From contig JBEKXL010000003.1 in the NCBI GenBank assembly GCA_049512075.1, forward strand, positions 64,001-128,000: DNA of 64,000 nt, given 5' to 3'. Source of the DNA: Candidatus Bathyarchaeia archaeon. Lineage in GTDB: Archaea; Thermoproteota; Bathyarchaeia; Bathyarchaeales; Bathycorpusculaceae. The position numbers and the translations under genes were made by a program. Of the stretch, positions 9,311-41,200 are shown piece by piece. The notes under the pieces are model-generated. The model was not told the DNA's origin and did not search any database. It saw only the letters and a list, made by a program, of their open reading frames with translations. Position 1 is the stretch's first letter. Every line of letters begins with the position of its first letter.

Positions 9311-9441
9311 CAGAACGCCATTATTATTTAGATTTGAGGTCGCTATATATCTGTTTCAGTGCCCGACCCAGCTTTTGGAAAGTGCAGCTTTCTGACAATT
9401 CTTTTATGCTTCTCAGACAGTCTAGCTTTAAGGTGCCTTTG

Positions 9442-11124: not shown

Positions 11125-11678
11125 TTTATTACGAAGAGCGTTTCCCCTTCGTTCACAGGTGTCCCCTCAGCAACGTTTACCTCTTGAATCGTCCCGGCTC
11201 TGGGCGCCGAGATTTCGTTTTCCATTTTCATGGCTTCAATCACGCATAAGACTTGACTGGCCTTGACCTGGTCGCCCTTCTTCACCTTGACATTAATTAT
11301 CTTGCCAGTCATGGGGGCAGTCACCGCGCCCTCGACAGCCACCTTCTTGTTTGTCCCCGTCTTCTTCACGGCAACTCGCGGTGTCGGTTCAAAACTCGTT
11401 AGTGCCTGTCCTTTGTTGGCAGTCTTGACTTCCACTTCAAACCCGGCTTCTTCAACCTTGACAGGAATCTTTTTTCCCCATTCGACTTTGGGCAGTTCAA
11501 TCTTGTAGGTTTTGCCGTCTATTTCTATGACAGAGGCTTTTTCTGACGCGATTCCGTCTCTTTGAAGTTTGATTTGCCGAGGTCTGCCGTCCACCTTGGC
11601 TGTAAAAGAGTCCGGCGATGTTCTAGTCAATTCGATTTTTCGCGGTCTGCCGTTTATGACGGCTTCGTAGTCAGGCAT
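11121..11678 (-). CDS. Biotin carboxyl carrier protein (1.3S-like)
   Basis: [15 protein letters not shown] biotinylation motif. Confidence 0.92.
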
Positions 11679-11679
11679 T

Positions 11680-13224
11680 CTATGCGCCTCTTTCTGTCAC
11701 GTTCCGGCGACCTGCGAGAACCCAAGGCGATATCGTACCCTTGGGCCGGCGTTGGACAAGTGCCTGCAAGCCCGAGTTTGATGAGGTGAAGGTGGCAATT
11801 GTGGCCGATAGTGCCGCAACCTCTTCGAGTTCAGCAAGCCTTTCGGGCGGTATTGTCGTCTTCGTCTCTCCGCGCTGGGCTTTTCTCTTCTTAAAGAACT
11901 CGAAAGCTGTCTGAGGGAAGAGTACGTATGTGAGCTTGTCTTCTTCAGTCTCTAGGTAAGGCTTCACATCGTCTGGTATCTTGTCTAATGCTGGTTCCAG
12001 CTGGTCGGCTGGACGGCCAGTTATAGGTTCTTCGTCGCCGATGATTTTCTTCTTGATTTTTGGGTCTATTGGCGCTGGAGGTTTTCCATACAGGCCTCGG
12101 ACGTAATCCTTTATTTCTTTTGGCACTATGCTGTACCGTTTACCTGAAATGACGTTCAGAACAGCTTGAATCCCCACTAGCTGGCTGGTGGGCGTTACGA
12201 GAGGCGGATACCCCAATTCTTTTCTGACCCTGGGCACTTCCTCAAGAACCTCACTCAGCCGATCCAGTGCTTTCTGCTCCCGAAGCTGCTCCAACAAGTT
12301 AGAAAACATCCCGCCCGGAATCTGATGAACGATTATCGAGGCATCGACTCGTTCAGCCTTCGGGTCGATGAGCTTCAATGGATCGTAGTATTTTTCGCGC
12401 AGTTCTCGGAAGTACTGTGCTATTTCGTCCAGAAGCCCGCTGTCTAAGCATGTGTCGTACGGGGTTCCCCTGAGTCCCGCTACGACGGACTCCACAGGTG
12501 GTTGTGATGTACCCCAGGCCAAGGGTGAAAAGGCTGTGTCCAAGATGTCTACGCCTGCCTCGCAGGAACGCAGGTAGGTCATCATCGCCATTCCGCTGGT
12601 GCTGTGAGTGTGCAAGTGCACTGGCAAACCTACTTCTTTCTTCAGAGCCGTGATCAAGTTGTACGCGGGTTGAGGTGCGAGCATGCCAGCCATGTCCTTT
12701 ATACAGATGGAGTCACAGTCCAGCTCGGCGAGTTTCTTCGCGAATTCTACGAAGTGCCCTACAGTGTGGACAGGGCTTATCGTGTAACTGATTGTTCCCT
12801 GGGCATGCTTGCCGACTTTTTTGACCGTTTTGATGGCGACTTCCATGTTTCTGATGTCGTTCAAGGCGTCGAATATTCGGAAAATGTCAACACCGTTTTC
12901 CGCAGCCTTTTCCACGAACTTTATCACGACATCGTCGGGGTAGTTGTGGTAACCGACCACGTTTTGTCCGCGCAGAAGCATTTGCAAGCGTGTCTTTTTG
13001 ACATGTTGCTTCAACTTTCTGATACGTTCCCAAGGGTCCTCGCCTAGAAAACGAATTGCAACGTCGAACGTCGCCCCGCCCCATGCCTCCAAAGAGAAGA
13101 AACCGACCTCGTCCATCTTCTCAGCGATCGGGAGCATCGTCTCTGTCCGCATTCTGGTGGCGAGTAGGCTTTGATGCGCGTCCCGGAAAGTGGTATCAGT
13201 GATTTTGACGGGTTTCGAAGCCAA
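11680..13224 (-). CDS. Pyruvate/oxaloacetate carboxyltransferase (transcarboxylase 5S / PycB / OadA-like) without a fused biotinyl domain
   Basis: DTTFRDAHQSLLATRM, WGGATFD, CIKDMAG, HLHTH, GYPPLVTPTSQ; ends in a SPWVLAGR tail. Confidence 0.9.
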   Translation of the reverse strand: MASKPVKITDTTFRDAHQSLLATRMRTETMLPIAEKMDEVGFFSLEAWGGATFDVAIRFLGEDPWERIRKLKQHVKKTRLQMLLRGQNVVGYHNYPDDVVIKFVEKAAENGVDIFRIFDALNDIRNMEVAIKTVKKVGKHAQGTISYTISPVHTVGHFVEFAKKLAELDCDSICIKDMAGMLAPQPAYNLITALKKEVGLPVHLHTHSTSGMAMMTYLRSCEAGVDILDTAFSPLAWGTSQPPVESVVAGLRGTPYDTCLDSGLLDEIAQYFRELREKYYDPLKLIDPKAERVDASIIVHQIPGGMFSNLLEQLREQKALDRLSEVLEEVPRVRKELGYPPLVTPTSQLVGIQAVLNVISGKRYSIVPKEIKDYVRGLYGKPPAPIDPKIKKKIIGDEEPITGRPADQLEPALDKIPDDVKPYLETEEDKLTYVLFPQTAFEFFKKRKAQRGETKTTIPPERLAELEEVAALSATIATFTSSNSGLQALVQRRPKGTISPWVLAGRRNVTERGA

Positions 13225-27123: not shown

Positions 27124-27621
27124 CTATTCTGGAAGAAGTCCAAGCAATGTCTGGACGATTTCCTTCACGGATGCTTCAACACAGGGAGTCAGACCCTCTC
27201 CAAAATCACTCTTCTCGGGTTCCACCAGCAACAGGGCAATTCTCGCTTGGGTTGTCTCCCTAACATGCTCACAGAATATCCGCAGTGGAAGCATGTGTGT
27301 CGAAAAGGCAGGAGACATTGTCAACAGCTCAGGTTCAACAAGCTTGTAACCGCCAGGCTTTAAGCCCAGAAGCGCAGCGTCTATCAGAAGAACGTGCGTT
27401 GGACTGAAATCTACGATTTGAGGCACGGAATCTTCAGGAACCGTTTCGCATTCTATGAGGTGTACCCTATCAGAAACCTTTCCCTGCAAGTCTTGGACCA
27501 CTCTCACTCCAACATAGTCGTCCATGCGAATGGTGTTTCCAACGCCGGCCAGAACGACTCTTTCAGCGTTTGAAAGCCACTTTCCAAGCTCCTTCCGAAC
27601 ACTGAATCTTGGGTTAACCAC
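27124..27621 (-). CDS. hycI: Hydrogenase maturation endopeptidase (HycI-like)
   Basis: GVGNTIRMDDYVG, ETVPE, IDAA, STH. Confidence 0.88.
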   Translation of the reverse strand: MVNPRFSVRKELGKWLSNAERVVLAGVGNTIRMDDYVGVRVVQDLQGKVSDRVHLIECETVPEDSVPQIVDFSPTHVLLIDAALLGLKPGGYKLVEPELLTMSPAFSTHMLPLRIFCEHVRETTQARIALLLVEPEKSDFGEGLTPCVEASVKEIVQTLLGLLPE

Positions 27622-27667
27622 TAGAAATCGCCAACAGAACACAATCAGAGGAAAAAGGAAAAAGAGT

Positions 27668-29122
27668 TTATCTCTCTAGTTTCTGAACGAGTTTCCTGTT
27701 TGCGTCGTAGATTGCCACGGTTAAGGGCATTTGTCCTACGGCGAAATGTGTGGCGCATCCGAAGCAGGGATCGTATGCTCTGAAGGCCATTTCGACCATG
27801 TTGAGTATGCCTTGGTTCACTTTTCCGTCGTGTATGAGACCTTTTGCCGCGTCGCGGATGGACATGCAGATTGCTGGGTAGTTGTTGGTTGTCGCTACAA
27901 TCATGTTGACATCCTTGATAAGCGCGTCCTTGTCCAGCACGTAATGGTGATACAGTGTGCCCCTTGCTGCCTCGACGACTCCTACGCCCTCGCCGGGCTC
28001 GCCCGGCTTGTTCCGCACGTTCGTGCTCGTTATCTCAGGGTCTCTTACGAGCTCAAGCGCCCGTTCAGTCGCGTAGAGTAGCTCAATCAGTCTTGCCCAG
28101 TGGAATGCCAGAGTGCCGTGTACCGGTTTTCCGCCTAGTGTCTTGTACATTACTTCGTACTCTTCCTGTGCAAGCGGTGTTGCCATGCCGTCTGAAGCGT
28201 TGAGTCTTCCAAGCGGACCCACACGGTAGACTCCGCTGTCCGGACCGTAAACTAGGCCTTTCCATCCTACCTTCTTGAGGAACGGGAACTTTGAGTAGGT
28301 CCACTCTTCCACGTGTTCGCCGATCTGTGTCAGGTAGTCTTTTGGTTCAAACTTGAGGAATTCGCCGCCGCTGGGATAGACGACTCTGATTTTACCGTCG
28401 TAAAAGTTGACTTTGTTGTGCTCATCGACCAGGCCCATATAGTACGTGTTCATCGTGTACGCGTCGCTCTTGATCATGTCAACGTACTTCGGGTTTCCCA
28501 GAACAATGTCATGAAATATTTTCAGGGTGAATTTTGCAAACTCCAAGGACGATGCTGCCATCATCTCGATTTCTTGTCTGTTCTCTTCGCTCAGCGGCTT
28601 CGAGATGCCTCCGGGCAACCCGCACACGGGATGCGTCGCTTTTCCGCCCAGAATCGCCGTTATCCTTTGTCCGTAGGCTCGGTGCTTGATGACCTCCTTG
28701 GCCACATCCATCCCAGCCTTCTCAATGACTCCCAGTATGTTTCTTTTCTCAGGCGGAGCGTCAGGTCCAACGATGAAGTCCGGTCCACCCAGATAGTAGA
28801 AGTGCAGTATGTGGTCATAGATGATGTATCCAGCGTACATGAGTTCTCTGAGCTTTTTAGCTGCTGATGGAGGGTCAACGTTGAACGCTGCGTCCAAGGC
28901 TTTTGTGGCAGCGAAATGGTGGGCGACGGGGCAGACTCCGCAGATTCTGGTCGTGAGAATCGGCATGAGTTCAGCTCTTCTGCCGACGCAGAACTGTTCG
29001 AACCCCCTGAGTTCAGGTATCTTGAGGTAGGCGTTTTCAACTTCGCCCTCGTTGTTCAGGAATATCGAAACGTTGCCGTGTCCTTCCAGTCTTGTTATTG
29101 GATCTATGACGATTTCCTTCAT
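27668..29122 (-). CDS. mvhA: Group 3c [NiFe] hydrogenase large subunit
   Basis: TRLEGHG, L1 RICGVCP..H, L2 RAYDPCFGCATH plus cleavable tail. Confidence 0.93.
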   Translation of the reverse strand: MKEIVIDPITRLEGHGNVSIFLNNEGEVENAYLKIPELRGFEQFCVGRRAELMPILTTRICGVCPVAHHFAATKALDAAFNVDPPSAAKKLRELMYAGYIIYDHILHFYYLGGPDFIVGPDAPPEKRNILGVIEKAGMDVAKEVIKHRAYGQRITAILGGKATHPVCGLPGGISKPLSEENRQEIEMMAASSLEFAKFTLKIFHDIVLGNPKYVDMIKSDAYTMNTYYMGLVDEHNKVNFYDGKIRVVYPSGGEFLKFEPKDYLTQIGEHVEEWTYSKFPFLKKVGWKGLVYGPDSGVYRVGPLGRLNASDGMATPLAQEEYEVMYKTLGGKPVHGTLAFHWARLIELLYATERALELVRDPEITSTNVRNKPGEPGEGVGVVEAARGTLYHHYVLDKDALIKDVNMIVATTNNYPAICMSIRDAAKGLIHDGKVNQGILNMVEMAFRAYDPCFGCATHFAVGQMPLTVAIYDANRKLVQKLER

Positions 29123-30099
29123 TGTTCCATCACTTTCCTCCTGAGGATTGATGATGGTAAAGAGTACATGTAGAACGTTCCAAGAGGATCCTTGATCTGG
29201 TCCATCAGGTTGTCAACATCCTCCTGGGTGTAATGCTCCGTCTCGCCTTCCAGCCCTAGTATTGAAGCTAACGCGCTCATCATTGCTGCTCCTTGCTCCG
29301 GCGAGTTGGGACATGGTCCACCGCATCCTGTGCAGGGCATGTCAACCGTGAGGCATTGAGCTCCGCAGCCGCTGCGAGTCGCTGGTCCCATGCATATTAT
29401 GCCCTGTTCGAGCAGACACTTCTCCGGTTCTGGGATCTTTTCATGAACACGGTATATCTTGGAGATTTTCTTGTTATCCTTCTTTCGTGGGCATTCGTCG
29501 CAGACAGATTTCAACGGTGCAAGCACTGAACCCTTTGGCGGCAGCTGGTTGTTCGCGATGGCATCCACGGCAGTCGCTATGAGTTTGACTGGAGGTGGGC
29601 AACCGGGCAGGTAGTAGTCTACGTCAACGGTCTGATCCAGGGTTTTTACTGTGTTGTAGAACTCTGGAAGCTTCAATGTGCCTTCTTTTGCTTCGGTCGT
29701 GGTTTTGGGAACGATTCTTTTTGGGTTAGCGATGGACTTGCTTTCCAGATAGACTTTGTCAAAGATTTCTTTGCGGTCATGGAGATTTGCTAGGCCTGGT
29801 ATGCACCCTTCTTGGGCGCACGAGCCGAACGCCACGAGCGTCTTGGATTTTTGTCTCAGGAGCTTGGCCATGTGTTCCTGTTCCCCGGTCCTGATTGACC
29901 CGTTGAAGAAGCATATGTCTATGTACTTGTCGGGCATGGCTTCAACGTCTTTGTATTTGACGTCTATAGCAACAGGCCAGAACACTATGTCCGCGATTTT
30001 CACTACGTCCAGTATTTTCTCGTTTATGTCCAGCACTGCGATTTCGCATCCGCCGCAGCTTGCAGCCCAGTAGAAACCCAGTTTCAGTTTTTCGCCCAT
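29119..30099 (-). CDS. mvhG: [NiFe] hydrogenase small subunit
   Basis: SCGGC, FGSCA, LPGCPP, CDEC, CMGPAT.SGC, PCTGC. Confidence 0.92.
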   Translation of the reverse strand: MGEKLKLGFYWAASCGGCEIAVLDINEKILDVVKIADIVFWPVAIDVKYKDVEAMPDKYIDICFFNGSIRTGEQEHMAKLLRQKSKTLVAFGSCAQEGCIPGLANLHDRKEIFDKVYLESKSIANPKRIVPKTTTEAKEGTLKLPEFYNTVKTLDQTVDVDYYLPGCPPPVKLIATAVDAIANNQLPPKGSVLAPLKSVCDECPRKKDNKKISKIYRVHEKIPEPEKCLLEQGIICMGPATRSGCGAQCLTVDMPCTGCGGPCPNSPEQGAAMMSALASILGLEGETEHYTQEDVDNLMDQIKDPLGTFYMYSLPSSILRRKVMEQ

Positions 30100-30990
30100 T
30101 TACTTTCCACCTTCACACACTTGTCCCAATATTTTTGAACAGTCAACGCGAAGTTCATTGAAAGCCAGTTCTTCAGGCGACATTCCCATTGCCAAACCCA
30201 GCAGTTGGGGGTAATGCAGGATTGGAATACCGTAAACCTCGTTGAACATTTTTTCTATGCGCAACTCGTTCGTGTCGTACATGATGTGGCAGAACGGGCA
30301 TATTGTTATCATCGCCTGCGCATCCACAGTCTTGATGTGGTTCAGCTTGTCCCTTGCCAGCTGCAGAGCGATCTTATCGTTCACGCCAACGCTTGGAGCA
30401 CCGCAGCATTCTGTCTCATCCAGGTAATCCAAACACGTTGCCCCAGTCGCTTCAATCAAGGTCTTGAGCGTTTTCGGATCCTCAGGATCATCAAAACCGA
30501 TATATTCCTTAGGCCTCAAAATGTGGCAACCGTTGTGTTCAGCGACTTTCACGTTTGTAAGCGGCCTGACGACCATTTCTTTTATCTTCTCCAACCCTAC
30601 GTCTTCAACCAGCACCTGCAACAAGTGCTTTGCCGTAACCGTTCCCTTGAACTCCAGTCCGGCTTCCTTCAAACGCCCGTTTATCTCTTCACACATGTGC
30701 TTATCTTCTTTCAACATCTTGCTGACTTTCTTCAAAGTCCCAGCACAGCCTGGGCACAAGGCCACGACATCCAATCCCTTCTGCTCCGCTATGGCAAGAT
30801 TTCTGGCTGCCAGAATGAGCATCGTTTCGTGGCTCACAGGATCTAACGGAAGCCCGCAACAGTTGAACTCGGGCATCTCAACTATTTCCACGCCGAGTCT
30901 CTGCAGGATTTTGCGCGCGGAGATCTCGTACGCAACTACACGGTAGGGAATTGCGCATCCCAGAAACAGGAGATACTTGTGTTCGGCCAT
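30100..30990 (-). CDS. hdrB: Heterodisulfide reductase subunit B
   Basis: FLGC, CCG, CPGC, HNGCH, ECCG, CPFC. Confidence 0.92.
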   Translation of the reverse strand: MAEHKYLLFLGCAIPYRVVAYEISARKILQRLGVEIVEMPEFNCCGLPLDPVSHETMLILAARNLAIAEQKGLDVVALCPGCAGTLKKVSKMLKEDKHMCEEINGRLKEAGLEFKGTVTAKHLLQVLVEDVGLEKIKEMVVRPLTNVKVAEHNGCHILRPKEYIGFDDPEDPKTLKTLIEATGATCLDYLDETECCGAPSVGVNDKIALQLARDKLNHIKTVDAQAMITICPFCHIMYDTNELRIEKMFNEVYGIPILHYPQLLGLAMGMSPEELAFNELRVDCSKILGQVCEGGK

Positions 30991-30991
30991 T

Positions 30992-31516
30992 CTAGCCTCC
31001 CTTCTTTTCGACGCACTTAAGAAACCCTATTTCCCGAAGCGTTTTGCCTATGCTTCCAGGGTTGCCCTTCGGTAGCGGCGGCAGGCCCAGGGTTTCTCTC
31101 TTCTTTAGCCTTAACTCGGGAATTCGGTAAGCGTAGCCTGACTCGAGTATGCTTGATGCTTCCTCTTTGAACATTTGAGGAACGATGCCCTTCTCAGCTG
31201 CCAAGTTTCTCAGAACACGTATGACACTGGCCACTTCAACATCTTGTGGACACCGGTCTGTGCACGTGAAGCAGGCTGCGCAAAGCCACAGTGTGTCGCT
31301 GTTCAGCACTCTGTCTCTGAGTCCGAGCTGCGTCATTCGGATTATCTGTCTCGGCCTGTAGGTTTCGCTGAACCGTGCAACTGGACAGTCTGACGTGCAT
31401 GTTCCACACTGGAAGCAGCGCATCACTTTTTCTCCGCCGTGCATCTTTGAAATTTCGTACTTGAATTTGGGATCTATTTCTGAAGCTTTTATGGGCTTTT
31501 CAGCTGTTTCCGTCAT
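30992..31516 (-). CDS. hdrC: Heterodisulfide reductase subunit C
   Basis: [26 protein letters not shown]. Confidence 0.92.
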
Positions 31517-31956
31517 TGGGCTTCAGCTTCCATGGCTTTTACCTGGCTTGGACCAAGCTTCTTCAAGTCTTCCACCATGCTTCTGACCACAGCGGCCCAT
31601 TTGTCCCCTTCACTTGCTGAAATCCATTCTAGCCGCAGACGTTCGGGTTCTATTCCGAAGTCTTTAAGGACTCTCTTCAGCAGGTTTATTCTTCTCATGG
31701 CCTTGAAGTTTCCGCTGATGTAGTGACAGTCTGATGGTAAGTGGCAGCCTGCGACTAGCACGCCGTCCGCGCCGTCTTTGAATGCTTCTAGCACGAACGC
31801 TGGGTCTATTCTGCCGCTGCACATCACGCGTATGATTCTGATGTTTGGGGGGTACTGGATTCTGCTTACACCCGCCAAGTCTGCTCCAGCGTAGCTGCAC
31901 CAGTTGCACAGAAAACCGATTATTTTCGGTTCAAACCCGTCGTTCTTGCTCATCAT
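31513..31956 (-). CDS. mvhD: Hydrogenase/Hdr 2Fe-2S adaptor MvhD
   Basis: [21 protein letters not shown]....DCHY, WISASEG; true start MMSKND overlaps the hdrA stop. Confidence 0.93.
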
Positions 31957-34900
31957 TCTGCCTCCACTAAGGCTGCTTTGACTTGAGCAAGTATTTCCTG
32001 CGTGGTAAAGTGTCCCATCGTGATAGCATTTGTTGGACAGGCCGTACCGCATGCGCCGCAGCCCTTGCACAGGGCTTCAATCACGTGTGCGATTGGTTTT
32101 CCATCCTTGTCCTTCATTTCGACTGCACCGTATGGGCATAGATACTCACAGATTCTGCAGGCACTACATAAATCTTCGTCAACGTTTGCGATGATTCCTT
32201 CCATCTCGAGCGTGTTTTTGGAGAGTATTGTTGCGGCCCTCGAAGCAGCTGCACACGCTTGCGCGATGCTTTCTTCGACGTACTTTGGCGAGTGAGCCAT
32301 TCCACACAGGAAAACGCCGTCGGTTGCGAAATCCACTGGACGGAGTTTCATGTGTGCTTCCAGGAAGGAGCCATCCTTTGTCAGTGGCACCTTGAGCAGT
32401 TCGGCTATATGCTTGTTCTCAGGGTTCGGAATCGTTGCCGCGCTCAAGACTACGAGGTCAGGCTCGATTTCGAGTTGTTGCTTCAGCACGGGTTCCCAGA
32501 AAGCCATTTTGAGTTTGTTTCCCTCCTTGGTGAGTTCCGGCTTGCGTTCATCGTCATAGTTTATGAACGTGACCCCTTTCATTGCAGCGTCACGGTAGTA
32601 GTCTTCCTTGAACCCGTAGGATCTGATGTCCTTGAACAACACGTACACTTCGGTCTGTGGGCTTACTTCCTTGATTTTCAAAGCGTTCTTGATGGCTTGT
32701 CCACAGCATATTCTTGAGCAGTTGGGTCGCTCTTTTGTTCTTGCGCCGATACATTGGACCATGACCACGTTTTTGGCGTTGAATTCTCCTTTGGCAAGGT
32801 CTTCTTCCAGCTCATGCTGTGTCACGACCCTCGGGTCTTTGTCATAGAAGTACTCGGTGGGTCTGTATTCCACCGCACCAGTGGCGACTACCACTATGCC
32901 GTGCTGAATTTCCTTTTCGCTACCGTTCTGCTGGTGGATTTTTGACTTGAAGTTTCCCACGAAACCGTAGACGTCGGCAACTTCTGCTCCCGTGTAGACG
33001 TGTATCTTGTCATTCTTCATGACTTCGTTGACGATGGCATTTACTTTTTCTTTCGGGTCGCTTTTCTCTCCAAGTAGATAGTACATTGTGCGAAGATGAC
33101 CGCCCAATTCCTTTTCTTTTTCAACCAAATGCACTTCGAACCCTTGTTTTGCAAGCTCCAGAGCTGCCGTCATGCCGGAGACGCCGCCTCCTATGATGAG
33201 ACCGACCTGGGTGACGTTTATCACCGGTTTCTTCAAGGGTTTCAACAGTGCTGCTTTGGCAACTATTGACCTGACGAGGTCTTTGGCTTTTTCCGTGGCC
33301 TCTTTCGGCTCATGCATGTGTACCCAGCTGCACTGGTCTCGGATGTTCGTCATCTCAAACAGGTACGGGTTCAATCCAGCTTCCTGGACTGTTTCTTTGA
33401 AGAGCGGTTCGTGCGTCCTCGGCGTGCACGAAGCAACTATGACGCGGTTCAGTTTGTTCTGCTGGATTTCTTCGCGTATGAGCTTCTGTGTGTCCTGTGA
33501 GCAAGTGTAAACGTTTGCCTCTGCGTAGACCACATTTGGCAGGGTCTTTGCGTACTCCACGACTTGGGGTACGTTTACGACTCCGCCGATGTTGATCCCG
33601 CAGTGGCAGACGAAAACTCCGATGCGAGGCTCTTCTTTGCTCACGTCTCTTTCAGCAGGATACTCTCTTGCTACAACCTGTGTTCCTCTTGCGTCTGCGA
33701 TTATTCCCATGGCTCTTGCTGCTGCGCCGCTTGCTTGGGCTACGCTTTCAGGTATGTCTTTCGGTGCAGAGAAGGCGCCGCAGACGAAGATGCCCGGTTT
33801 AGAAGTGTCCATCGGAGAGAAGGTTTGTGTTTCGCAGAAGTTGTACTTGTTGAGCTTGATTCCCAGGTTTTTGGCCAGTTCTTCAACGCCCTTCGGGGGT
33901 TGCATTCCTATTGCCAGCACAACCATGTCGAACTCTTCCGTCTTTGGGTTTTCGTCTTGGACGTAATGGACGAAGAGGTTGCCCGTCAACGGGTCTTCAG
34001 TTACTCCGGCGACGCGTGATCTCGTGAATCTTATGCCATACTCTTCTTCAGCGCGGTTGCGGTAGGCGTCGAACTCTTTTCCGTACGAACGCATGTCCAT
34101 GTAGAAGATTGACGCGTCCATTTGGATGGGTGTGTGCTCTTTTGCTATGACGGCTTCTTTAATGCCGTACATGCAGCACGCCGCGGAACAGTAGTTGTTT
34201 CCGAGCTGGTAGTCTCTTGAGCCGACGCATTGGATAAAGGCCACCCTTTTCGGTATTTCACCGTCTGAAGGTCTTATGACGAGTCCGCCGTACGGGCCGG
34301 AGGCGCTCAGGATGCGTTCGAATTCGATGCTTGTGACGACGTTTTGGAAGCGTCCGTAGCCGTACTCGCTTTTGAGCCTTGCGTCGAAGGGTTCGAATCC
34401 TGGAGCGAGGATTATTGAGCCAACTTTCAGGGTTGTTTCGGTCTCTTTCTGGTCGTACTCGATTGCTCTTGCTTTGCAGATTTCGTAGCACGTTCCGCAT
34501 CCTATGCATTTTTCGCGGTCAATCTTGTACTTCAGTGGGACTGCCTGTGGATACTCCACGTAGACTGCGCCTCTGTTCGCTAGGCCTTCGTTAAACATGT
34601 CAACGGCTTCGATTGGACACTTCTGCGCGCAGATGCCGCAGCCGTTGCACTTGTCTTCGATTATGTAGCGGCTGTTTCTTCGAATCTTTACTTCGAAGTT
34701 TCCAGCTTCACCGTTCAATCCCGTGATGTCCGCGTTCGTCAGAATCGTGATGTTCGGGTGCCTTCCAGTTGCAACAAGCTTGGGTGACAGGATGCACATT
34801 GAACAGTCGTTTGTTGGAAATGTTTTGTCGAGCTGAGCCATCACTCCGCCTATGCTTGGTCCTTTGTCAACAAGGTACACTTTGAATCCGGAGTCGGCTA

Positions 34901-34973
34901 GGTCCAAGGATGCTTGTATGCCAGCGACTCCTCCGCCGACCACCATTACTGCTCCGATTTTTTGGTTTTTCAT
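31953..34973 (-). CDS. hdrA: Large heterodisulfide reductase subunit A with duplicated FAD modules
   Basis: [19 protein letters not shown]; IQCVGSRD...CS..CC; VFVCHCG; second GGGVSG and QCIGAR...CSRICC; terminal ferredoxin. Confidence 0.92.
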
Positions 34974-34974
34974 T

Positions 34975-35736
34975 TTATTCAACCTCCAAAGCCTTGTAGA
35001 GAGGTGTCGTTCCCTCGATGCTGTCAAGAGCTATCATGTTTTTTCTGCGCATGTTCACTATCTGTTTGAGAACCGCCGCTGGCTTCATTTCGGTTACTTC
35101 TGCCAAGGCCTTGACTGAAAGCGGCTTGGTTTTTGTGAGAAGGTGAATCTTGTACCTGATGAATTCGTCTTCAACAACGTCATCCATCAATGTGTCGAAT
35201 TCTTCAGGTGTGAGTTTGTCACCGTAAACGTTCACGCCTTCGGTGAGTTCCTTCTCCCTGCCAAGCAAGACTCTCAGGCGAAACTCGCCGGCAGCGTTCT
35301 TGGCAGCTAGGAGATTCACAATAGGCATGGATTCGCGCTTTGCATTTTTCAGCTGGGAAGCTCCTAGTTTCTCTATTTCCTTGGAGAACTCTTTCGCTGA
35401 GCGCGTGAAACTCGTTTCTTCCAAGGGCGAGTACCAGAGCAGGCTTAGGCGTTCAGGTTCCAAGCCTGTCAATGCCAACAGCTTCTTCAGCATTTTTACG
35501 GCGCGTTCTGCTTGCAGGTTACCTTCAACGAAGTGGCAGTCTGGCGGTTTGCATCCTGCCAGCATCACGGCATCGGCGCCTTTCTCGAATATTTCGAGAA
35601 CAACGGTCGGGTCTATTTCTCCGATGCAGTTTACGCGTGCCACGTTAATGTTGGATGGTACTGGGTTTTCGCTCCTGCAGAAGGCGAAGTTGCACATCAA
35701 ACAAACAATTCTGGGTTCTTTGTCCGTCATTCTCAT
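34975..35736 (-). CDS. Divergent MvhD domain fused to a C-terminal winged-helix domain
   Basis: CLMCNF, RVNCIG, GCKPPDCHF; C-terminal PLSVKALAEVTEMKPAAVLKQIVNMRRKNMI...TPLY. Confidence 0.75.
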   Translation of the reverse strand: MRMTDKEPRIVCLMCNFAFCRSENPVPSNINVARVNCIGEIDPTVVLEIFEKGADAVMLAGCKPPDCHFVEGNLQAERAVKMLKKLLALTGLEPERLSLLWYSPLEETSFTRSAKEFSKEIEKLGASQLKNAKRESMPIVNLLAAKNAAGEFRLRVLLGREKELTEGVNVYGDKLTPEEFDTLMDDVVEDEFIRYKIHLLTKTKPLSVKALAEVTEMKPAAVLKQIVNMRRKNMIALDSIEGTTPLYKALEVE

Positions 35737-37455
35737 CTACTCCTTGGGGGTTGGTATGGCAAAGTTTAGTATGTGCTCGTTGGTTATTTTCTTCATCGTT
35801 ATCGCCCTTACTGGGCATCTTGCTGCACAGAGTCCACATCCCTTGCACAGATCCTCGTTTATTCGTGCGATGTTGTTCTCGTCCTTTTCAGCTGCTCCGA
35901 ATGGACAGACGATGGCGCACACGTTGCAGCCTATACAGAGAGCTTCGTCGACGGCGGCCTTGTCGCCCTCGCATAGATCTGTGGTTCCGAGGCATTCTGC
36001 GCAGGGTCCGCAACCTAGGCAACGGCAAGCTTCAAACTTGGCGTCTCTCTCCAGTTTTTCCACGTAGTCTTGCACCTCTTCGAAAGCGGTATGGGATTTC
36101 TCTGAGAGAGGGTTGTACCGACGTTCTTTCTTCTTTATCTGTTTCGGGTTTTTGGCCCATGTTGCTTCTTCGATGTTCTCTTCTCTTCCCTTGTGGATGT
36201 CTTGTCCGCTCAGGTGTAGGTGAATTGACGCGGCTGCTCGTTTTCCCTGTCCCACGGCTTCGATTATGCTTGCGGGTCCAGTGGTTATGTCGCCGCCTGC
36301 GAAGACTCCTGGAATTTTGGTCTCGAGTGTTAATGGGTCTGTCGTTATCGTTGGAATCTTTGCTTTCTCATCCTGCAGGGGCTTCGGGATGCACTTACTT
36401 TCTGCTAGCTGGCCCAGGGCGGGGATGACCATGTCCACTTCGTACTTGTGCTCAGAACCGGGCATCGGCACTGGACGCCTCCTGCCGCTTTCGTCAGGCT
36501 CACCCAGCTTCATTCGCAAACATTCGAGGGCCACGACTTTGCCGTTTTCGCCGATAATCTGTTTTGGTGCAACTAGAATCTCTATTTTGACGCCGTCCTT
36601 TTCGGCTTCTTCCACTTCGCTCGGTAAGGCGGGCATTTCCTCTCGGGAACGTCTGTACAGAAGGGTGACTTCTCTTGCACCCAATCTTTTGGCTGTTCTG
36701 GCAGCGTCAATTGCGCTGTTCCCACCGCCGACCACAGCTACTCTCTGTCCGACTTCCACTTTTTTTCCAAGGGCTATGTCTCTTAGGAAGTCAACGGCGT
36801 TCACGACGCCCTTCAGGTCTTCACCCGGAACGCTAAGCATCATTCCTTGCTGGGTGCCGATAGCCAGAAAAATAGCCTTGCAGCCTTCCTCCTGCAGGCT
36901 TTCAATCGTGATGTCCTTTCCAAATTCAACGCCTGTTCTGATTTCCACGCCCAGGTCTTTGATGTAGTTTGCTTCGTTTTCCACGACGAATTTCTCAAGG
37001 CGGAAATCAGGTATACAGTAGCGCATCATGCCTCCAGGCTCGGCCATGCGTTCATAAACTGTCACGGGGTAACCGAGTTTTGCGAGTTCGTATGCCGCGG
37101 TTAGGCCTGCGGGACCCGCTCCGATGATAGCGACTTTCTCTGCGTGTCTCTTGGGTATGGGTTTGGGTTTGACCTTTCTCTGTTGGCGTTCGATGTCGGC
37201 GACGAACTTCTTCAATGCGCGTATGGCTACAGCCTGGTCCACATCAGTTCTTGCGCATGCGTCCTCACATGGACTGAAGCACACTCTTCCGCAGATTGCT
37301 GGGAAGGGCATGTCGTTTCGAATGATGTCAACTGCTTCCTTGTACTTTCCTCTTTGAATTAGAGAAACGTATGCTTGAACGTTAACGTGTGCTGGACATG
37401 CAAATCGGCATGGCGGGAGCTTTCTTTTCACGGTTGTCACAGTCTCAGTTGTCAT
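35737..37455 (-). CDS. GltD/NfnB-like FAD/NADPH oxidoreductase with C-terminal ferredoxin (HdrL-like module)
   Basis: PCRFACP, ICGRVCFSPCE, GAGPAG, GGGNSA..YRRS, RCLGC, two CxxCxxC motifs. Confidence 0.85.
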   Translation of the reverse strand: MTTETVTTVKRKLPPCRFACPAHVNVQAYVSLIQRGKYKEAVDIIRNDMPFPAICGRVCFSPCEDACARTDVDQAVAIRALKKFVADIERQQRKVKPKPIPKRHAEKVAIIGAGPAGLTAAYELAKLGYPVTVYERMAEPGGMMRYCIPDFRLEKFVVENEANYIKDLGVEIRTGVEFGKDITIESLQEEGCKAIFLAIGTQQGMMLSVPGEDLKGVVNAVDFLRDIALGKKVEVGQRVAVVGGGNSAIDAARTAKRLGAREVTLLYRRSREEMPALPSEVEEAEKDGVKIEILVAPKQIIGENGKVVALECLRMKLGEPDESGRRRPVPMPGSEHKYEVDMVIPALGQLAESKCIPKPLQDEKAKIPTITTDPLTLETKIPGVFAGGDITTGPASIIEAVGQGKRAAASIHLHLSGQDIHKGREENIEEATWAKNPKQIKKKERRYNPLSEKSHTAFEEVQDYVEKLERDAKFEACRCLGCGPCAECLGTTDLCEGDKAAVDEALCIGCNVCAIVCPFGAAEKDENNIARINEDLCKGCGLCAARCPVRAITMKKITNEHILNFAIPTPKE

Positions 37456-37516
37456 TCTCGAACCTCGCTTCACTCATCAAGTATTGTTTCCAAAGCGAAC
37501 TTATTAAATCGCCTAA

Positions 37517-37539
37517 GCCACCCTTGGCATATGGGTGGC
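37517..37539. promoter_or_regulatory. Inverted repeat adjacent to the hdr/mvh operon promoter (operator or terminator hairpin)
   Basis: GCCACCC-N9-GGGTGGC just upstream of the minus-strand TATA TTTAATAA (37508-37501). Confidence 0.5.
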
Positions 37540-37583
37540 ATAAATCGAGATCGCAGGCTTGATACGTCGTATTAGAATCTTGT

Positions 37584-38174
37584 TTATTCACGTGATCTTT
37601 CCTCCAGTTTGTCAACCCATTTGTTGTATTCGCGCGCGCCCATCAGGCTGTCAAGCTCTTGCTTCATGGTCAAGGAGTTGTTCGGTTTGATTTCCGCGAT
37701 CCATCCTTGTCCGTATGGGTCTTCGTTGACCATGGTGGGTTTTTCTCTGAGTTTTTCGTTGATTTTGGCTATTTGGCCGCTGACTGGTGAGTAGAGGTCA
37801 AACAGCAGCATCCATGTTTCGGCGACTCCGAACGGTTCCATTTTGTTGAGTTCTTTTCCAACTGGCTCTGTGCGAACTTGAGCCAGACCTCTCAGTCGCT
37901 TCTGTGCATAGTCAGATATGCCGACGCGTACGTTTCCATCTGTTGTCGTTTGAGCCCAGGTGTGTTTCGGCGTGTATAGCAATTGGTCGGGTGCGGAAGG
38001 CGTTTCCTGAGTCTTGCCCGTTGAGAATCCCTCTGCGCGCGCGAGTTCCTCCAGACGTAGGCGGATAGCCTCTGAAACAAATTCCGATATGCTTCGGTAA
38101 CGGCCTGTTTTGATGACCTTTTCGATTTCTTTTATGAGCTCCTGTCTGATGCTAATCGTCTTCCACTCAGACAT
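37584..38174 (-). CDS. Ribbon-helix-helix domain fused to a GcvH-like domain lacking the lipoyl lysine
   Basis: KTISI...YRSISEFVSEAIR (RHH); YTPKHTW..GISDYAQ..AETWM..DLYSPVSG..NEDPYGQGW (GcvH, with ESVK replaced by ETWM). Confidence 0.85.
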   Translation of the reverse strand: MSEWKTISIRQELIKEIEKVIKTGRYRSISEFVSEAIRLRLEELARAEGFSTGKTQETPSAPDQLLYTPKHTWAQTTTDGNVRVGISDYAQKRLRGLAQVRTEPVGKELNKMEPFGVAETWMLLFDLYSPVSGQIAKINEKLREKPTMVNEDPYGQGWIAEIKPNNSLTMKQELDSLMGAREYNKWVDKLEERSRE

Positions 38175-38398
38175 TCACAGGCCTTCCTTCCCTCGGTTTT
38201 GAGTTAGATGTGCTTCAAGTTTGAGTTATTTAGAGTTTTCCTTGACCGTCTAGGAAATAATCCATTGCCTGAACATAAATCAAAACAAGTAGACTGGGCG
38301 CTTCCAATCTAGAATGCGGGTCAAAACTGGCCCGATTCTCTCTGATGCTTCGAAAGCCTCGCCAGTTGGGTCTCATTAGAACCACTGAAGGAGGTAGG

Positions 38399-41200
38399 TT
38401 AACTCGGCATCGCTTCTGCTTCTTTCTGTTCTTTTGGTTCCAATTGCGTTCGTATCTGGTTCGAGGCCTGTTTTTCCTTGACCGTTTTTGGCTCTGCGCA
38501 TCTAGCTTCTTCTTCTCTGATGCTGAGCATTCCTTTCACGGTTCCGTCATCCATGTATTTGACGGCGAAGCCCATTTTCTTCATGAGACCCATCGCCCTA
38601 TAGTTGTCAGCAAGCATTATGGCATAGATCGTTTCGAGCTTCATGTCAGCGCAGATTTCAAGCACATAATCTACGAGTTTCGTGCCGAGTCCTAGACCTT
38701 GCCAAGGGTCGGCGACTATGAAGGCGATTTCACCTGTTCTTCCGTCAGGTTCTATGCTCACTCGGGCTACGCCGAGGATTCTTTTTCGTCCTTCTTCCGT
38801 CAGTTCTGCGACTATGGCTATTTCTCGGTCGTAGTCTATGTTGCAGTAGCGGACTCTGGTTTCGTGCGGTGTGTCCTTGAGTACCTGGAAGAACCTATAG
38901 CGTATTGATTCTTCTGAGAAGTTCTGGAACATTTCTAGCCATAGTGGTTCGTCTTCGGGCTTTATCGGCCTCAGTATGACCGTCCTCCCGTCTCTTAATC
39001 TCCACATGGTCTCGTATTTTGTCGGATACGGCGTGACGATGAGATGCTGGTGAGGCTCAAACTTTGTAAATACCTTTGAGGGGTCTATCACGATGCGCGC
39101 GTCGAAGGCGAAGGCTTCTTTTTCATTTATGAAAAGCGGGTTGATGTCAACCTCTTTGAGCTGCGGAAAATCAACGAGCATTTGGCTGAAGCGGACCATT
39201 ATTTCTTCCAGCAGTTTGATGTTCGCGGGAGGGAAATTTCGATATCCTTTCAGAAGTTGATACATCTTCGTTTCTTCCATCATTCTTCTGACAAGAGTCT
39301 GGTTCAGCGGTGGGATTCCTATTGCGAAGTCCTTAAACAGCCCAACTCCAACTCCACCCATCCCGAAGAGTATGACCGGGCCGAAGAGCGGGTCTGCTTT
39401 CGCCCCGATGATTACCTCGTAGCCCTGCCTCTTTATCATGGGCTGAACGGTCACGCCCAGAATCTCAGCGTCCGGATCGTGTTCCTTTGCCTTCTGCGTT
39501 ATGCGTTTGAACGCCTCTCGCGCTTCGGCCTCGCTTGTTATGTCAAGCACGACGCCGCCTACGTCGCTTTTGTGAGTTATTTGAGGAGACAGAACCTTCA
39601 TCACGACCGGATATCCCAGCTGCGAAGCCAGTAGAGCCGCTTCGTTTTCAGTCTGAGCAGTCTTCGTTTTCACAACTGGGAAGTTGTAGTACTCCAAGAA
39701 TGTTTTGGCTTCAACTTCGGTGAGTATTTCACGGTTCTCAGTCGCAACGTTTCTCAACACGGTCAAGAGTGGTCGTCTTGGCGGCACAACGTCTACTGGA
39801 AGTTCTTCCGGTGTTTCATAAAGCAATTCAAGGTTGCGCTTGTACTGGTACATGTATTGGTACGTCTTGATTGCCTGCTCGGGTGTGGAGTATGTCGGAA
39901 TGTTGTTATCTATGAATATACGGTTAGCTTCTTCCACCGCTCCATAACCCATGAAAGAAGTCAATATTGTCTTGTTTTGATAAGTTCGGCTTCTTATCAG
40001 CTCTGCGAGACTCTTGGCCACTTCCACAGGTTCTACCACGGCTTGGGCAGTGTATATTATCACTATTCCATCCACATTATCATCGTTTAGACAAGCCTCA
40101 ACAACCGCCCTGTACCTGTCGGCCTTGGCGTCTCCGAGGATGTCAATCGGGTTTCCCCTGCTCCAGAAATGAGGCAGAACACTGTTGAGAACCTCCATCG
40201 TCTTGTCGCTGAGCTTCGCAAGCGTTCCTCCCTGAGCGATTAGAGAGTCGGTTGCCATGACGCCCGGCCCGCCGGCGTTGGTGATTATGGCAAGGTTGGG
40301 GCCTCGAGGTATAGGCTGCATGCCTAGCACTGCGGCACAGTTGAAAAGGTCCGCGATTTCTTCCACTCTAACCATGCCCGCCCGTTTGAACGCCTTGTCG
40401 TAAATCATGTCTTCGCCCGTCAGCGAACCAGTGTGCGAAGCAGCGGCTTTCGCGCTTTCGCTGAACTTGCCAGCCTTCACCACGATTATCGGTTTAGTTC
40501 GGGCAAAGTGTCTCGCGGCGCTCATGAACTTTCTGGCGTCGGTGATTCCTTCAATGTACATGAGGATGCTCTTCGTCTTCGGATCAGTGCCGAAATAGTC
40601 CATGAGGTCACCGAAGTCCACGTCGATCATCGAGCCCAACGACACGAAGTTGCTGAACCCTATGTTTTCATGCATCGCCCAGTCAAGGATTGCCGTGCCC
40701 AAGGCGCCGCTCTGAGAGATGAACGCTATGTTGCCCGGCTTCGGCATCTTGCTGATGAACGTCGCGTTCAAGTGCATAATTGGACGAATCACACCTAGAC
40801 AGTTCGGTCCAACGATTCGCATGTTATATTTCTTCTTGATTTCGGTTATTCTCTCTTCCAGTGCTCTGCCCTCAGGCCCGATTTCTTTGAAGCCCGCTGA
40901 GATTACGATAATGCCGTCTATACCGGCTCTTCCACACTGTTCGAGGACATCGGGCACAGTTCTCGCCGGTGTGGCTATCACGGCAAGATCCACGGGTTCA
41001 GGAACCTGTTCGACGTTTGCATAAGCCTTCAAGCCCAGAACCTCGGTTTTCTTGAGATTGACAGGAAAAACATGCCCCCCGAACCCTGACTCTGTGAAAT
41101 TCTTCATCAAAGCATAGCCGACTGAACCCTCTTCATCGCTTGCCCCAATAACCGCCACGCTTTTCGGGTTGAAAATCTTGTCAAGATTCAAGGTAACCAA
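38399..41200 (-). CDS. ADP-forming acyl-CoA synthetase (alpha+beta) fused to GNAT (Pat/YfiQ architecture)
   Basis: VGPNCLG, SQSGA, ASHTGSL, THKSDVGGV, DINPL; GNAT ILRPIKPED...WQGLGLGT. Confidence 0.92.
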   Translation of the reverse strand: MVTLNLDKIFNPKSVAVIGASDEEGSVGYALMKNFTESGFGGHVFPVNLKKTEVLGLKAYANVEQVPEPVDLAVIATPARTVPDVLEQCGRAGIDGIIVISAGFKEIGPEGRALEERITEIKKKYNMRIVGPNCLGVIRPIMHLNATFISKMPKPGNIAFISQSGALGTAILDWAMHENIGFSNFVSLGSMIDVDFGDLMDYFGTDPKTKSILMYIEGITDARKFMSAARHFARTKPIIVVKAGKFSESAKAAASHTGSLTGEDMIYDKAFKRAGMVRVEEIADLFNCAAVLGMQPIPRGPNLAIITNAGGPGVMATDSLIAQGGTLAKLSDKTMEVLNSVLPHFWSRGNPIDILGDAKADRYRAVVEACLNDDNVDGIVIIYTAQAVVEPVEVAKSLAELIRSRTYQNKTILTSFMGYGAVEEANRIFIDNNIPTYSTPEQAIKTYQYMYQYKRNLELLYETPEELPVDVVPPRRPLLTVLRNVATENREILTEVEAKTFLEYYNFPVVKTKTAQTENEAALLASQLGYPVVMKVLSPQITHKSDVGGVVLDITSEAEAREAFKRITQKAKEHDPDAEILGVTVQPMIKRQGYEVIIGAKADPLFGPVILFGMGGVGVGLFKDFAIGIPPLNQTLVRRMMEETKMYQLLKGYRNFPPANIKLLEEIMVRFSQMLVDFPQLKEVDINPLFINEKEAFAFDARIVIDPSKVFTKFEPHQHLIVTPYPTKYETMWRLRDGRTVILRPIKPEDEPLWLEMFQNFSEESIRYRFFQVLKDTPHETRVRYCNIDYDREIAIVAELTEEGRKRILGVARVSIEPDGRTGEIAFIVADPWQGLGLGTKLVDYVLEICADMKLETIYAIMLADNYRAMGLMKKMGFAVKYMDDGTVKGMLSIREEEARCAEPKTVKEKQASNQIRTQLEPKEQKEAEAMPS

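Follow-up and report, generated by a model that had tools for sequence, protein, structure and literature searches.

A Probable Ribbon-Helix-Helix Protein with a Lysine-less H-Protein Domain, Encoded Upstream of hdr/mvh Genes in Bathyarchaeia: a Candidate One-Component Regulator

The DNA analysed here, referred to as the window, is a stretch of 64,000 nt from Candidatus Bathyarchaeia archaeon (GenBank assembly GCA_049512075.1, contig JBEKXL010000003.1, positions 64,001 to 128,000). On its minus strand lies a gene for a 196-residue protein, called RHH-GcvH below, in which an N-terminal ribbon-helix-helix (RHH) domain is joined to a domain resembling the glycine cleavage H-protein (GcvH) but devoid of its lipoyl lysine. 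The original prediction had placed this gene directly upstream of hdr/mvh genes, and the order along the minus strand agrees with it: RHH-GcvH is followed by genes for a GltD-like protein, MvhD, HdrA, MvhD, HdrC, HdrB, MvhG, MvhA and a protease. The prediction had started the gene at 37501; however, the sole open reading frame (ORF) inside its interval is 37584-38174, and the remaining 83 nt (37501-37583, minus strand) are not part of the gene but intergenic promoter DNA on its 3' side. The features referred to in the text are as follows.

37584..38174, minus strand: RHH-GcvH ORF, 196 residues, no Cys, no lipoyl Lys (ORF list, Pfam and alignment)
38046..38159, minus strand: ribbon-helix-helix, residues 6-43, with strand K-T-I-S-I-R, helix A, turn G24-R-Y-R-S28-I-S30 and helix B (Pfam and NCBIfam)
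38035-38043: GCGCGCGCG run in the codons of L44-A45-R46-A47-E48
37989..38030, minus strand: flexible linker, residues 49-62 (pLDDT, the AlphaFold2 per-residue confidence, <50)
37611..37982, minus strand: H-protein (GCV_H) fold domain, residues 65-188 (Pfam and Foldseek)
37809..37811, minus strand: Met122 codon at the lipoyl-lysine position, E-T-W-M replacing E-S-V-K (phmmer alignment)
37517..37539, no strand: inverted repeat GCCACCC-N9-GGGTGGC, 9 nt from TTTAATAA, confined to the genus
37525..37542, minus strand: direct repeats TATGCCA x2, 11 nt apart (37525-37531 and 37536-37542), the local form of an order-wide repeat
37501..37508, minus strand: TATA-like box TTTAATAA of the hdr/mvh operon promoter, with a conserved TTAGGCG resembling the B recognition element (BRE) before it (anchored comparison)
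35737..37473, minus strand: GltD/NfnB-like NAD(P)H flavoprotein with a Fer4_20 plus 2x[4Fe-4S] domain, heading the downstream operon (Pfam and NCBIfam)
27124..35736, minus strand: MvhD-like, HdrA (~1000 residues), MvhD, HdrC, HdrB, MvhG, MvhA and hydrogenase maturation protease (Pfam, NCBIfam and locus screen)
38175..38398, minus strand: upstream intergenic region of RHH-GcvH itself, containing GATTTATGTTCA (sequence comparison)

The architecture first noticed was borne out, the complete H-protein fold by Pfam, AlphaFold2 and Foldseek taken together and the N-terminal RHH in the same chain by profile matches. The GCV_H match covers profile positions 1-120 of 122 (E 7.7e-31), and the fold is complete, spanning residues 63-195. 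The AlphaFold2 monomer model, built from a 67-row alignment with a mean pLDDT of 84.6, displays a confident C-terminal domain and a disordered linker, the length and sequence of which differ between paralogues. Foldseek comparison with the PDB superposed the C-terminal domain on the bovine and human H-proteins with a target-normalised template-modelling (TM) score of 0.93-0.94 and a root-mean-square deviation (rmsd) of 1.0-1.1 Å, and likewise on the E. coli H-protein (TM 0.93, rmsd ~1 Å). When two full-length copies were modelled as a homodimer with the family alignment, the prediction scored 0.35 against a mark of 0.42, the controls giving 0.00-0.01, a value that speaks neither for a dimer nor against one. 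The sequence holds no Cys and a single His, which is also conserved in canonical GcvH.

The RHH_1 profile of Pfam matches residues 6-43 with an E value of 5.9e-4 and 20.1 bits, the cut-off being 20.5 bits. Among 36 fused members it is matched by 25 (E up to 0.01, best 2e-5), and GCV_H by all 36. The N-terminal 45 residues match the NCBIfam models of a ParD-type antitoxin (TIGR02606, E 5.9e-5) and of CdrS (E 0.0036), and the only solved RHH structure matched by the family profile is NikR, query residues 6-45 aligning on NikR residues 14-53. The N-terminal strand K-T-[IV]-S-I-R shows an alternation of polar and hydrophobic residues, while Y26, S28, S30 and E31 are at least 90% conserved in the family; such a strand pattern and such conserved residues are expected of RHH DNA binders. 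The assignment of the N-terminal domain to the RHH fold may be called good, though it falls short of being beyond doubt. The GCGCGCGCG run, to which attention had been drawn because of its position at the RHH/linker boundary, is indeed present there but was rejected as a significant element, being plain coding sequence whose encoded residues vary among homologues.

The replacement of the lipoyl lysine is evident from phmmer alignments with solved H-proteins, in which A-E-T-W-M of the query falls on V-E-S-T-K (M. tuberculosis GcvH) and L-E-S-V-K (human GCSH); Met122 thus occupies the position of the Lys, as had been claimed. The same holds for the family, and homologues that mostly retain Lys were not what was found: the residue at the site is Met in 111 and Val in 9 of the 120 close homologues (four that the pattern missed were read by eye) and Lys in none, and in a joint alignment Lys is present in 0 of 37 fused rows as compared to 26 of 30 unfused rows. 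Three of the four Lys-less unfused rows (P0125, P0131 and P0143) are short versions or fragments of the fused clade. Distant fused members carry E-D-W-L, E-T-W-W, E-S-W-W, E-T-V-A-R-W, L-T-R-F and similar motifs at the site, none of them with Lys. The motifs H-x-W and N-x-D-P-Y-x-x-G-W and the residue E119 are common to the fused protein and canonical GcvH, relative to which there is also a 3-residue insertion at 168-170. The clade-specific changes, namely S to T120, V to W121, K to M122, A to F/L123 and S to F125, are concentrated on the former lipoyl hairpin, which has become hydrophobic (T-W-M-F/L-x-F). The loss of Lys at the hairpin means that the domain cannot carry lipoate, and, with no Cys in the chain, neither lipoate nor a redox-active thiol can be carried. 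Other Lys-less GcvH-like domains were also seen (P0132, P0159, P0184 and P0235), as tandem repeats in longer proteins of 264-1391 residues without an RHH.

A word-indexed search returned 846 relatives, the best 120 of which are 193-200 residues long (one of 177) and 71-93% identical to the query. Among these best 120, the name, where given, is 'glycine cleavage system protein GcvH', and the organism, where given, is Candidatus Bathyarchaeia, Bathyarchaeota or Thermoproteota. Among 1.84 billion representatives, searched exhaustively, just 14 clusters reached an E value below 1e-30, and matches in the ESM Atlas were to the family's own Bathyarchaeota clusters and to ordinary GcvH, with nothing else. 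When the class was sampled evenly, the protein (E up to 1e-40) was present in 46 of 401 genomes, and in 43 of the 220 of high quality. All carriers belong to five families of one order (24 of 103 genomes in f1, 11 of 25 in f11, 7 of 11 in f6, 2 of 18 in f7 and 1 of 2 in f3), and the protein was not found at this threshold in the other families of the sample.

In a quick tree of the domain, a branch with an approximate likelihood-ratio (SH-aLRT) support of 90 sets 35 of the 36 fused rows, together with three Lys-less unfused rows, apart from the remaining rows, which include P0134 on a long branch; this is compatible with a single origin of the Lys-less clade. Tandem pairs of RHH-GcvH paralogues stand upstream of hdr in several loci and genomes (L078, L100-L103; G010, G030, G037, G150, G253, G330, G372 and G414). 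The linker is longer in the second paralogue type, where the site reads E-D-W-L, E-T-W-W or E-S-W-W, and one 417-residue entry (P0121) holds both paralogues in a single ORF. The tandem arrangement hints that the paralogues may form hetero-oligomers. In one genome (G029:C65:18085-18665) the RHH part (79-residue frame) and the GcvH-like part (148-residue frame) lie in overlapping frames, which may represent either a frameshift or a genuinely split form.

The linkage of the gene to hdr/mvh was surveyed in 80 loci of species-representative genomes, retrieved with a 7-sequence alignment; their titles name Bathyarchaeia, Bathyarchaeota or Bathyarchaeales, except for one 'Thermoproteota archaeon' and two 'uncultured archaeon'. 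Linkage was counted in the 64 loci with at least 2.5 kb of downstream DNA. A GltD-like gene stands on the same strand within 700 nt in 52 of the 64, and an MvhD-like gene within 3.5 kb in 58; HdrA was sought up to 4.5 kb downstream, a distance available in 58 loci, and is present in 52 of these. The gap between the RHH-GcvH gene and the GltD-like gene is ~100-180 nt. Among 41 related genomes, 17 carry both genes, which are adjacent in all 17, and 23 carry neither, while G029 has only its split RHH/GcvH pair and no GltD-type orthologue of at least 62% identity; the genomes are kin, and the 62% line was drawn after the data had been seen. The homologues are therefore tightly linked to hdr in both the 80-locus survey and the set of 41 genomes.

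Six loci have no hdr downstream. In five of them (L080, L088, L089, L091 and L093) the gene adjoins a TauE-like permease, a small conserved protein and a cluster of NuoE, NuoF, 2Fe-2S and [NiFe]-hydrogenase genes, and in L061 neither hdr nor such a cluster lies alongside. In six other loci (L081, L082, L083, L092, L098 and L103) no full-length GltD-like gene was found by a tblastn screen; in the five of these with enough downstream DNA, an MvhD-like gene starts ~1.4 kb after the RHH-GcvH stop. The downstream DNA of L081, L082, L083 and L092 encodes K-L-P-P-C, as does the N-terminus of the GltD-like gene of the window, which suggests a shorter gene with a GltD-like N-terminus in these loci.

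Comparison of 57 hdr-proximal intergenic regions (55 distinct sequences), anchored on the TATA box, revealed an order-wide repeat with the consensus tTaTGTtA-N-gTGttAA upstream of the hdr TATA, its two copies spaced by 11 nt and represented in the window by TATGCCA x2; the repeats have GCC in the genus of the window and GTT or GTC in other lineages. About 17 nt beyond the direct repeats a conserved TTAGrTGnc-TTAATATA stands before the GltD-like gene. In most lineages a C-rich stretch and a T-run follow right after the RHH-GcvH stop codon. Of 56 distinct hdr promoters, 28 contain the pattern RYGYYA-N5-RYGYYA, which is found in 0 of the 138 other intergenic regions taken from these loci; TTTRYGYYA in forward orientation is present in 34 of 56 hdr promoters, 35 of 56 upstream regions of the gene itself and 6 of 138 other intergenic regions. 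In many lineages the TTTRYGYYA of the gene's own promoter abuts the TATA box (TTTATGCTATATATCA), and the own upstream regions also carry a conserved palindrome, ATAGTATTTACTAT. In the window, the 8-mer GATTTATG is common to the own promoter region, within GATTTATGTTCA, and to the hdr promoter.

The palindrome GCCACCC-N9-GGGTGGC beside the operon TATA, noted in the original prediction, is present as described and is the only such site in the 2.7-Mb genome, the reversed control pattern giving 0. Among the three relatives within the genus, L024 keeps the palindrome through changes on both arms (GCCACGC/GCGTGGC), and L025 and L026 have one mismatch each; it is absent from the loci of other genera that were compared. 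The palindrome is thus a feature of the genus only, whereas the direct repeats are conserved across the order.

These observations are best explained, with moderate confidence, by RHH-GcvH being a dedicated one-component RHH transcription factor with a pseudo-H-protein effector domain, belonging to one order of Bathyarchaeia. The analysis establishes the architecture, the family-wide loss of Lys, the synteny, the co-occurrence, the separate promoter and terminator signals and the conserved repeats, whereas the binding of DNA, the sites bound, the direction of control and the signal are inferred. The N-terminal RHH would dimerise and bind DNA, and the Lys-less H-protein domain would be the module for effector action, sensing or protein contact. 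The proposed site in the hdr/mvh promoter is the pair of 11-nt-spaced direct repeats (TATGCCA x2 here, RTGYYA x2 elsewhere), which lies ~17-35 nt upstream of the BRE/TATA, where archaeal activators typically bind. In the promoter of its own gene the protein would bind the related TTTRYGYYA element, and the abutment of this element on the TATA box in most lineages suggests autorepression. The regulator reading is favoured by the terminator-like T-run of the gene, the separate BRE/TATA of hdr and the repeats in both promoters. The association of the gene with two different redox complexes, hdr/mvh and NuoEF/[NiFe]-hydrogenase, also fits a regulator better than a fixed subunit. The signal is neither thiol chemistry nor lipoylation of the protein itself. 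The proposal of a one-component regulator built on a pseudo-H-protein thus stands as the best reading in view of the linkage, the Lys loss and the promoter elements, whereas the link to lipoate or thiol status that had been attached to it finds no support.

Several observations weigh against this reading. The RHH_1 score of the window protein is 0.4 bits below the Pfam cut-off, the family profile finds the RHH region of NikR only weakly among solved structures (E ~0.06), and the AlphaFold2 monomer shows residues 2-22 as a single helix instead of strand and helix; the last is expected because a lone chain was modelled, and it lends the RHH no support. The genus of the window has no T-run after the stop codon, so that the gene may be co-transcribed with hdr here. 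The motifs were defined on the same promoters in which they were counted, partly after both sets had been viewed, and the loci are kin, so that conservation by descent inflates the counts. A position weight matrix (PWM) of the double repeat, made from 51 promoters of other genera, scores the window site at only 10.5 bits, and a score of 10 bits or more is reached by 109 sites in the genome; in the top 24, many lie inside long open frames and none precedes a redox gene. With so many sites, many of them within ORFs, no regulon can be defined. Neither motif occurs within the 170 nt scanned after the gene's stop in the nine non-hdr loci (L061, L080, L084, L086, L088, L089, L090, L091 and L093), so the repeat goes together with the hdr promoter and may be the site of a different factor. 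The simpler pattern ATGCCA-N5-ATGCCA, with one mismatch allowed, has 17 matches in the genome (9 forward, 8 reverse) as compared to 5 for a control pattern, and the most consensus-like extra site, C1:127511, is upstream of a membrane-protein ORF. As to expression, the only listed run with any of the window in it is a peat metatranscriptome (0.09 of sampled words) kept as contigs, which cannot show transcript starts, ends or levels and so bear neither way on co-transcription. Short stretches of two genes are covered, 36433-36663 and 36913-37140 in the GltD-like gene and 31068-31236 in HdrC, and the RHH-GcvH gene has no coverage.

The main rival reading, which we consider unlikely, is that RHH-GcvH belongs to the GltD-MvhD-HdrABC-Mvh electron-bifurcating complex as an accessory, adaptor or assembly subunit. 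The RHH-like head would then merely dimerise, and the Lys-less domain would dock on a subunit of the FAD/disulfide-oxidoreductase fold as H-protein does on L-protein. The adjacency to, and co-occurrence with, the GltD-like gene in 17 of the 17 genomes having both, on the same strand and at a gap of ~100-180 nt, is what a subunit would show, and the changes at T120, W121 and F125 make the former lipoyl hairpin hydrophobic, like a protein-contact patch. The canonical GcvH of the genome is itself followed by a gene for a pyridine-nucleotide-disulfide oxidoreductase, and in the genus of the window no T-run separates the gene from hdr. In most lineages, however, both a T-run and a separate conserved BRE/TATA stand between the gene and hdr, and in five loci, which lack hdr downstream, the gene adjoins a different complex, a NuoEF/[NiFe] hydrogenase. 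The RHH signature is moreover kept together with its polar strand residues, which a mere dimerisation module need not keep.

Docking and regulation could also be combined, in a form of the regulator reading that is rather speculative and for which our confidence is low. In the manner of H-protein on L-protein, the Lys-less domain, through its hydrophobic hairpin (T-W-M), may dock reversibly on the GltD/Hdr/Mvh machinery, or on the NuoEF-type hydrogenase, at a subunit of the flavin/disulfide-oxidoreductase kind, and the occupancy or redox state of the complex would determine how much of the RHH dimer is available for the hdr promoter and its own. If true, an energy-conserving complex of an uncultured archaeal lineage would be tied to the genes that encode it by feedback through partner switching.

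The idea that RHH-GcvH, as a regulator or a decoy, senses the status of lipoate or thiols, e.g. through competition for LplA/LipA or through thiol-disulfide chemistry, and couples it to Hdr expression, is highly improbable. The H-protein fold is nearly perfect, so that binding by enzymes recognising H-protein is conceivable, two LplA-like ligases and a glycine cleavage system are encoded in the genome, and GcvH-like LbpA works with Hdr-like complexes in sulfur oxidisers, according to PMC6067878. The chain, however, has neither Cys nor hairpin Lys, and the hairpin residues that are read by the ligase are altered (S to T, V to W, K to M, A to F/L). Both LplA-like genes are on contigs other than that of the RHH-GcvH gene, and no lipoate-metabolism gene was seen among the neighbours whose ORFs were read, no search for the LplA/LipA families having been made over the 80 loci. 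Sensing of lipoate or thiols, or a decoy for LplA/LipA, as originally envisaged, thus finds no support in the absence of Cys and the placement of the LplA-like genes.

Slightly less probable still is an RHH regulator or antitoxin-like protein with a target other than hdr, its position being an inherited gene order. The best NCBIfam match of the RHH part is to a ParD-type antitoxin, the repeat motif is missing downstream in the nine non-hdr loci, and the synteny is partly inherited, the loci being related. The synteny nevertheless persists down to ~50% protein identity, across five families and through tandem duplication (L078, L100-L103), the presence or absence of the gene tracks that of the GltD-type module, and no toxin-like small ORF was seen beside it among the neighbouring ORFs read.

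A genuine glycine-cleavage H-protein, as public records name it, is refuted in substance and next to impossible, for although its homologues carry that name in the sources and it passes the looser NCBIfam subfamily model NF002270 (121.1 bits against a cut-off of 117 bits), which explains the public annotation, it falls below the cut-off of the equivalog model TIGR00527 (100.6 against 115.85 bits), no member of the family has the lipoyl Lys, a canonical 136-residue GcvH is encoded elsewhere in the genome, and the gene adjoins neither gcvT nor gcvP, a position that serves only as a proxy for function.

The glycine cleavage genes of the genome are dispersed, with the canonical GcvH (E-S-V-K-A) on contig C2, GcvT on C13 and a two-gene GcvP on C9. 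The canonical GcvH gene overlaps by 4 nt the start of a gene for a 453-residue pyridine-nucleotide-disulfide oxidoreductase (L001 1465-3233; G000:C2, ~213.2-215.0 kb), which by its motifs resembles CoA-disulfide reductase/NADH oxidase and could be a non-standard L-protein partner. A third, weak GCV_H match in the genome (11172-11324) was rejected as a paralogue, being the biotinyl domain of a carboxylase carrier subunit. It lies in a 185-residue ORF with an E-A-M-K-M biotinyl motif (minus strand), and the same region of the window (9334-13224) holds, as judged by sequence reading, a methylmalonyl-CoA-mutase large-subunit-like ORF of 596 residues (plus strand) and a carboxyltransferase-like ORF of 514 residues (minus strand) of the oxaloacetate-decarboxylase-alpha/pyruvate-carboxylase-B kind.

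Directly upstream of the RHH-GcvH gene and on the same strand (38399-41200, minus) is a gene for a 933-residue Pat-type protein with ADP-forming acyl-CoA synthetase-like domains and a C-terminal GNAT acetyltransferase, found at that position only in the genus relatives L024-L026. In 35 of the 73 loci with sufficient upstream DNA a divergently transcribed gene of 357 residues is present (e.g. L038 7801-8874, minus strand), with an AbrB/SpoVT-like N-terminus and a PhoU-like body by sequence reading; it and the RHH-GcvH gene have in common a conserved promoter region with the palindrome ATAGTATTTACTAT. No close copy of the 357-residue gene was found at the corresponding place in the genome of the window. 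In L027-L052 and many other loci a second, more divergent MvhG-MvhA-HdrA-MvhD-HdrC-HdrB cluster stands ~2 kb upstream (~0.4-7 kb, locus coordinates), so that the RHH-GcvH gene lies between two hdr/mvh clusters in many loci. Within the operon of the window, the GltD-like gene has an alternative start at the ATG at 37455, preceded by GAGGT. The ORF calls of HdrA (31953-35027, TTG start at 35027) and of the second MvhD (31513-32070, GTG start at 32070) overlap their upstream neighbours, the former overlapping the MvhD-like gene (34975-35736) by 53 nt and the latter its neighbour by 118 nt; the true starts are probably internal ATGs, e.g. that of M-K-N-Q-K-I-G-A-V for HdrA.

To our knowledge, almost nothing is known of how modules for electron bifurcation between H2 and heterodisulfide are controlled in uncultured Bathyarchaeia, and RHH-GcvH provides a concrete candidate regulator, with candidate operators, for their hdr/mvh genes. 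If the proposal is correct, the lipoyl-carrier fold, here without its prosthetic-group site and fused to a domain for DNA binding, has been put to a new use. There is also a consequence for annotation: metabolic reconstructions of Bathyarchaeia that count RHH-GcvH as a component of glycine cleavage or of the reductive glycine pathway overcount, because the protein is called GcvH in public records and by the subfamily model, yet it cannot be lipoylated. A full-text literature search, with subscription-only papers outside its scope, returned neither a description of an RHH-GcvH fusion nor a regulator of Bathyarchaeia hdr/mvh genes.

Among known systems, NikR is similar in combining an N-terminal RHH and a C-terminal effector-binding domain in one short chain, the architecture also seen here; NikR controls metal- and hydrogenase-related genes. 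The C-terminal domain of NikR is an ACT-like fold with a His/Cys nickel site, whereas RHH-GcvH has in its place an H-protein fold in which Cys is absent and His occurs once, and the sequence similarity is not significant. Sensing of nickel in the manner of NikR was considered and is unlikely, since Cys is absent and the sole His is conserved with the fold. CopG, the ParD antitoxins and CdrS resemble the N-terminal 45 residues, which match RHH models; these proteins are, however, single-domain or paired with a toxin, whereas RHH-GcvH has a 135-residue H-protein domain and no adjacent toxin gene.

Canonical GcvH has the same fold (TM 0.93, rmsd ~1 Å, 34-37% identity by Foldseek), but in RHH-GcvH the Lys is mostly replaced by Met, an RHH and a linker are added, and linkage to gcvT/gcvP is missing. 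GcvH-L of Streptococcus pyogenes (PDB 5a35) is likewise a divergent H-protein paralogue (Foldseek E 2.3e-5, TM 0.85, 16% identity). It is a stand-alone lipoylated substrate of a sirtuin/macrodomain system, used outside glycine cleavage, and, unlike RHH-GcvH, has no DNA-binding domain.

The closest parallel in gene neighbourhood is LbpA, a GcvH-fold protein encoded beside heterodisulfide-reductase-like genes. The statement in the original prediction that such proteins accompany sHdr systems in sulfur oxidisers agrees with PMC6067878, where LbpA acts as a lipoylated carrier, its lipoyl lysine being strictly conserved and two cysteines being conserved in most members. Set against LbpA, RHH-GcvH differs in having an RHH and in lacking the lipoyl Lys and Cys. 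The gene cluster is also different, being of the Mvh/HdrABC/GltD type with hydrogenase genes and not an sHdr cluster with dedicated lipoate ligases. The order of the sHdr cluster is hdrC1B1A-hyp-hdrC2B2. If RHH-GcvH is a one-component regulator of the RHH kind, as may well be the case, its effector domain is of a type for which no earlier description was found.

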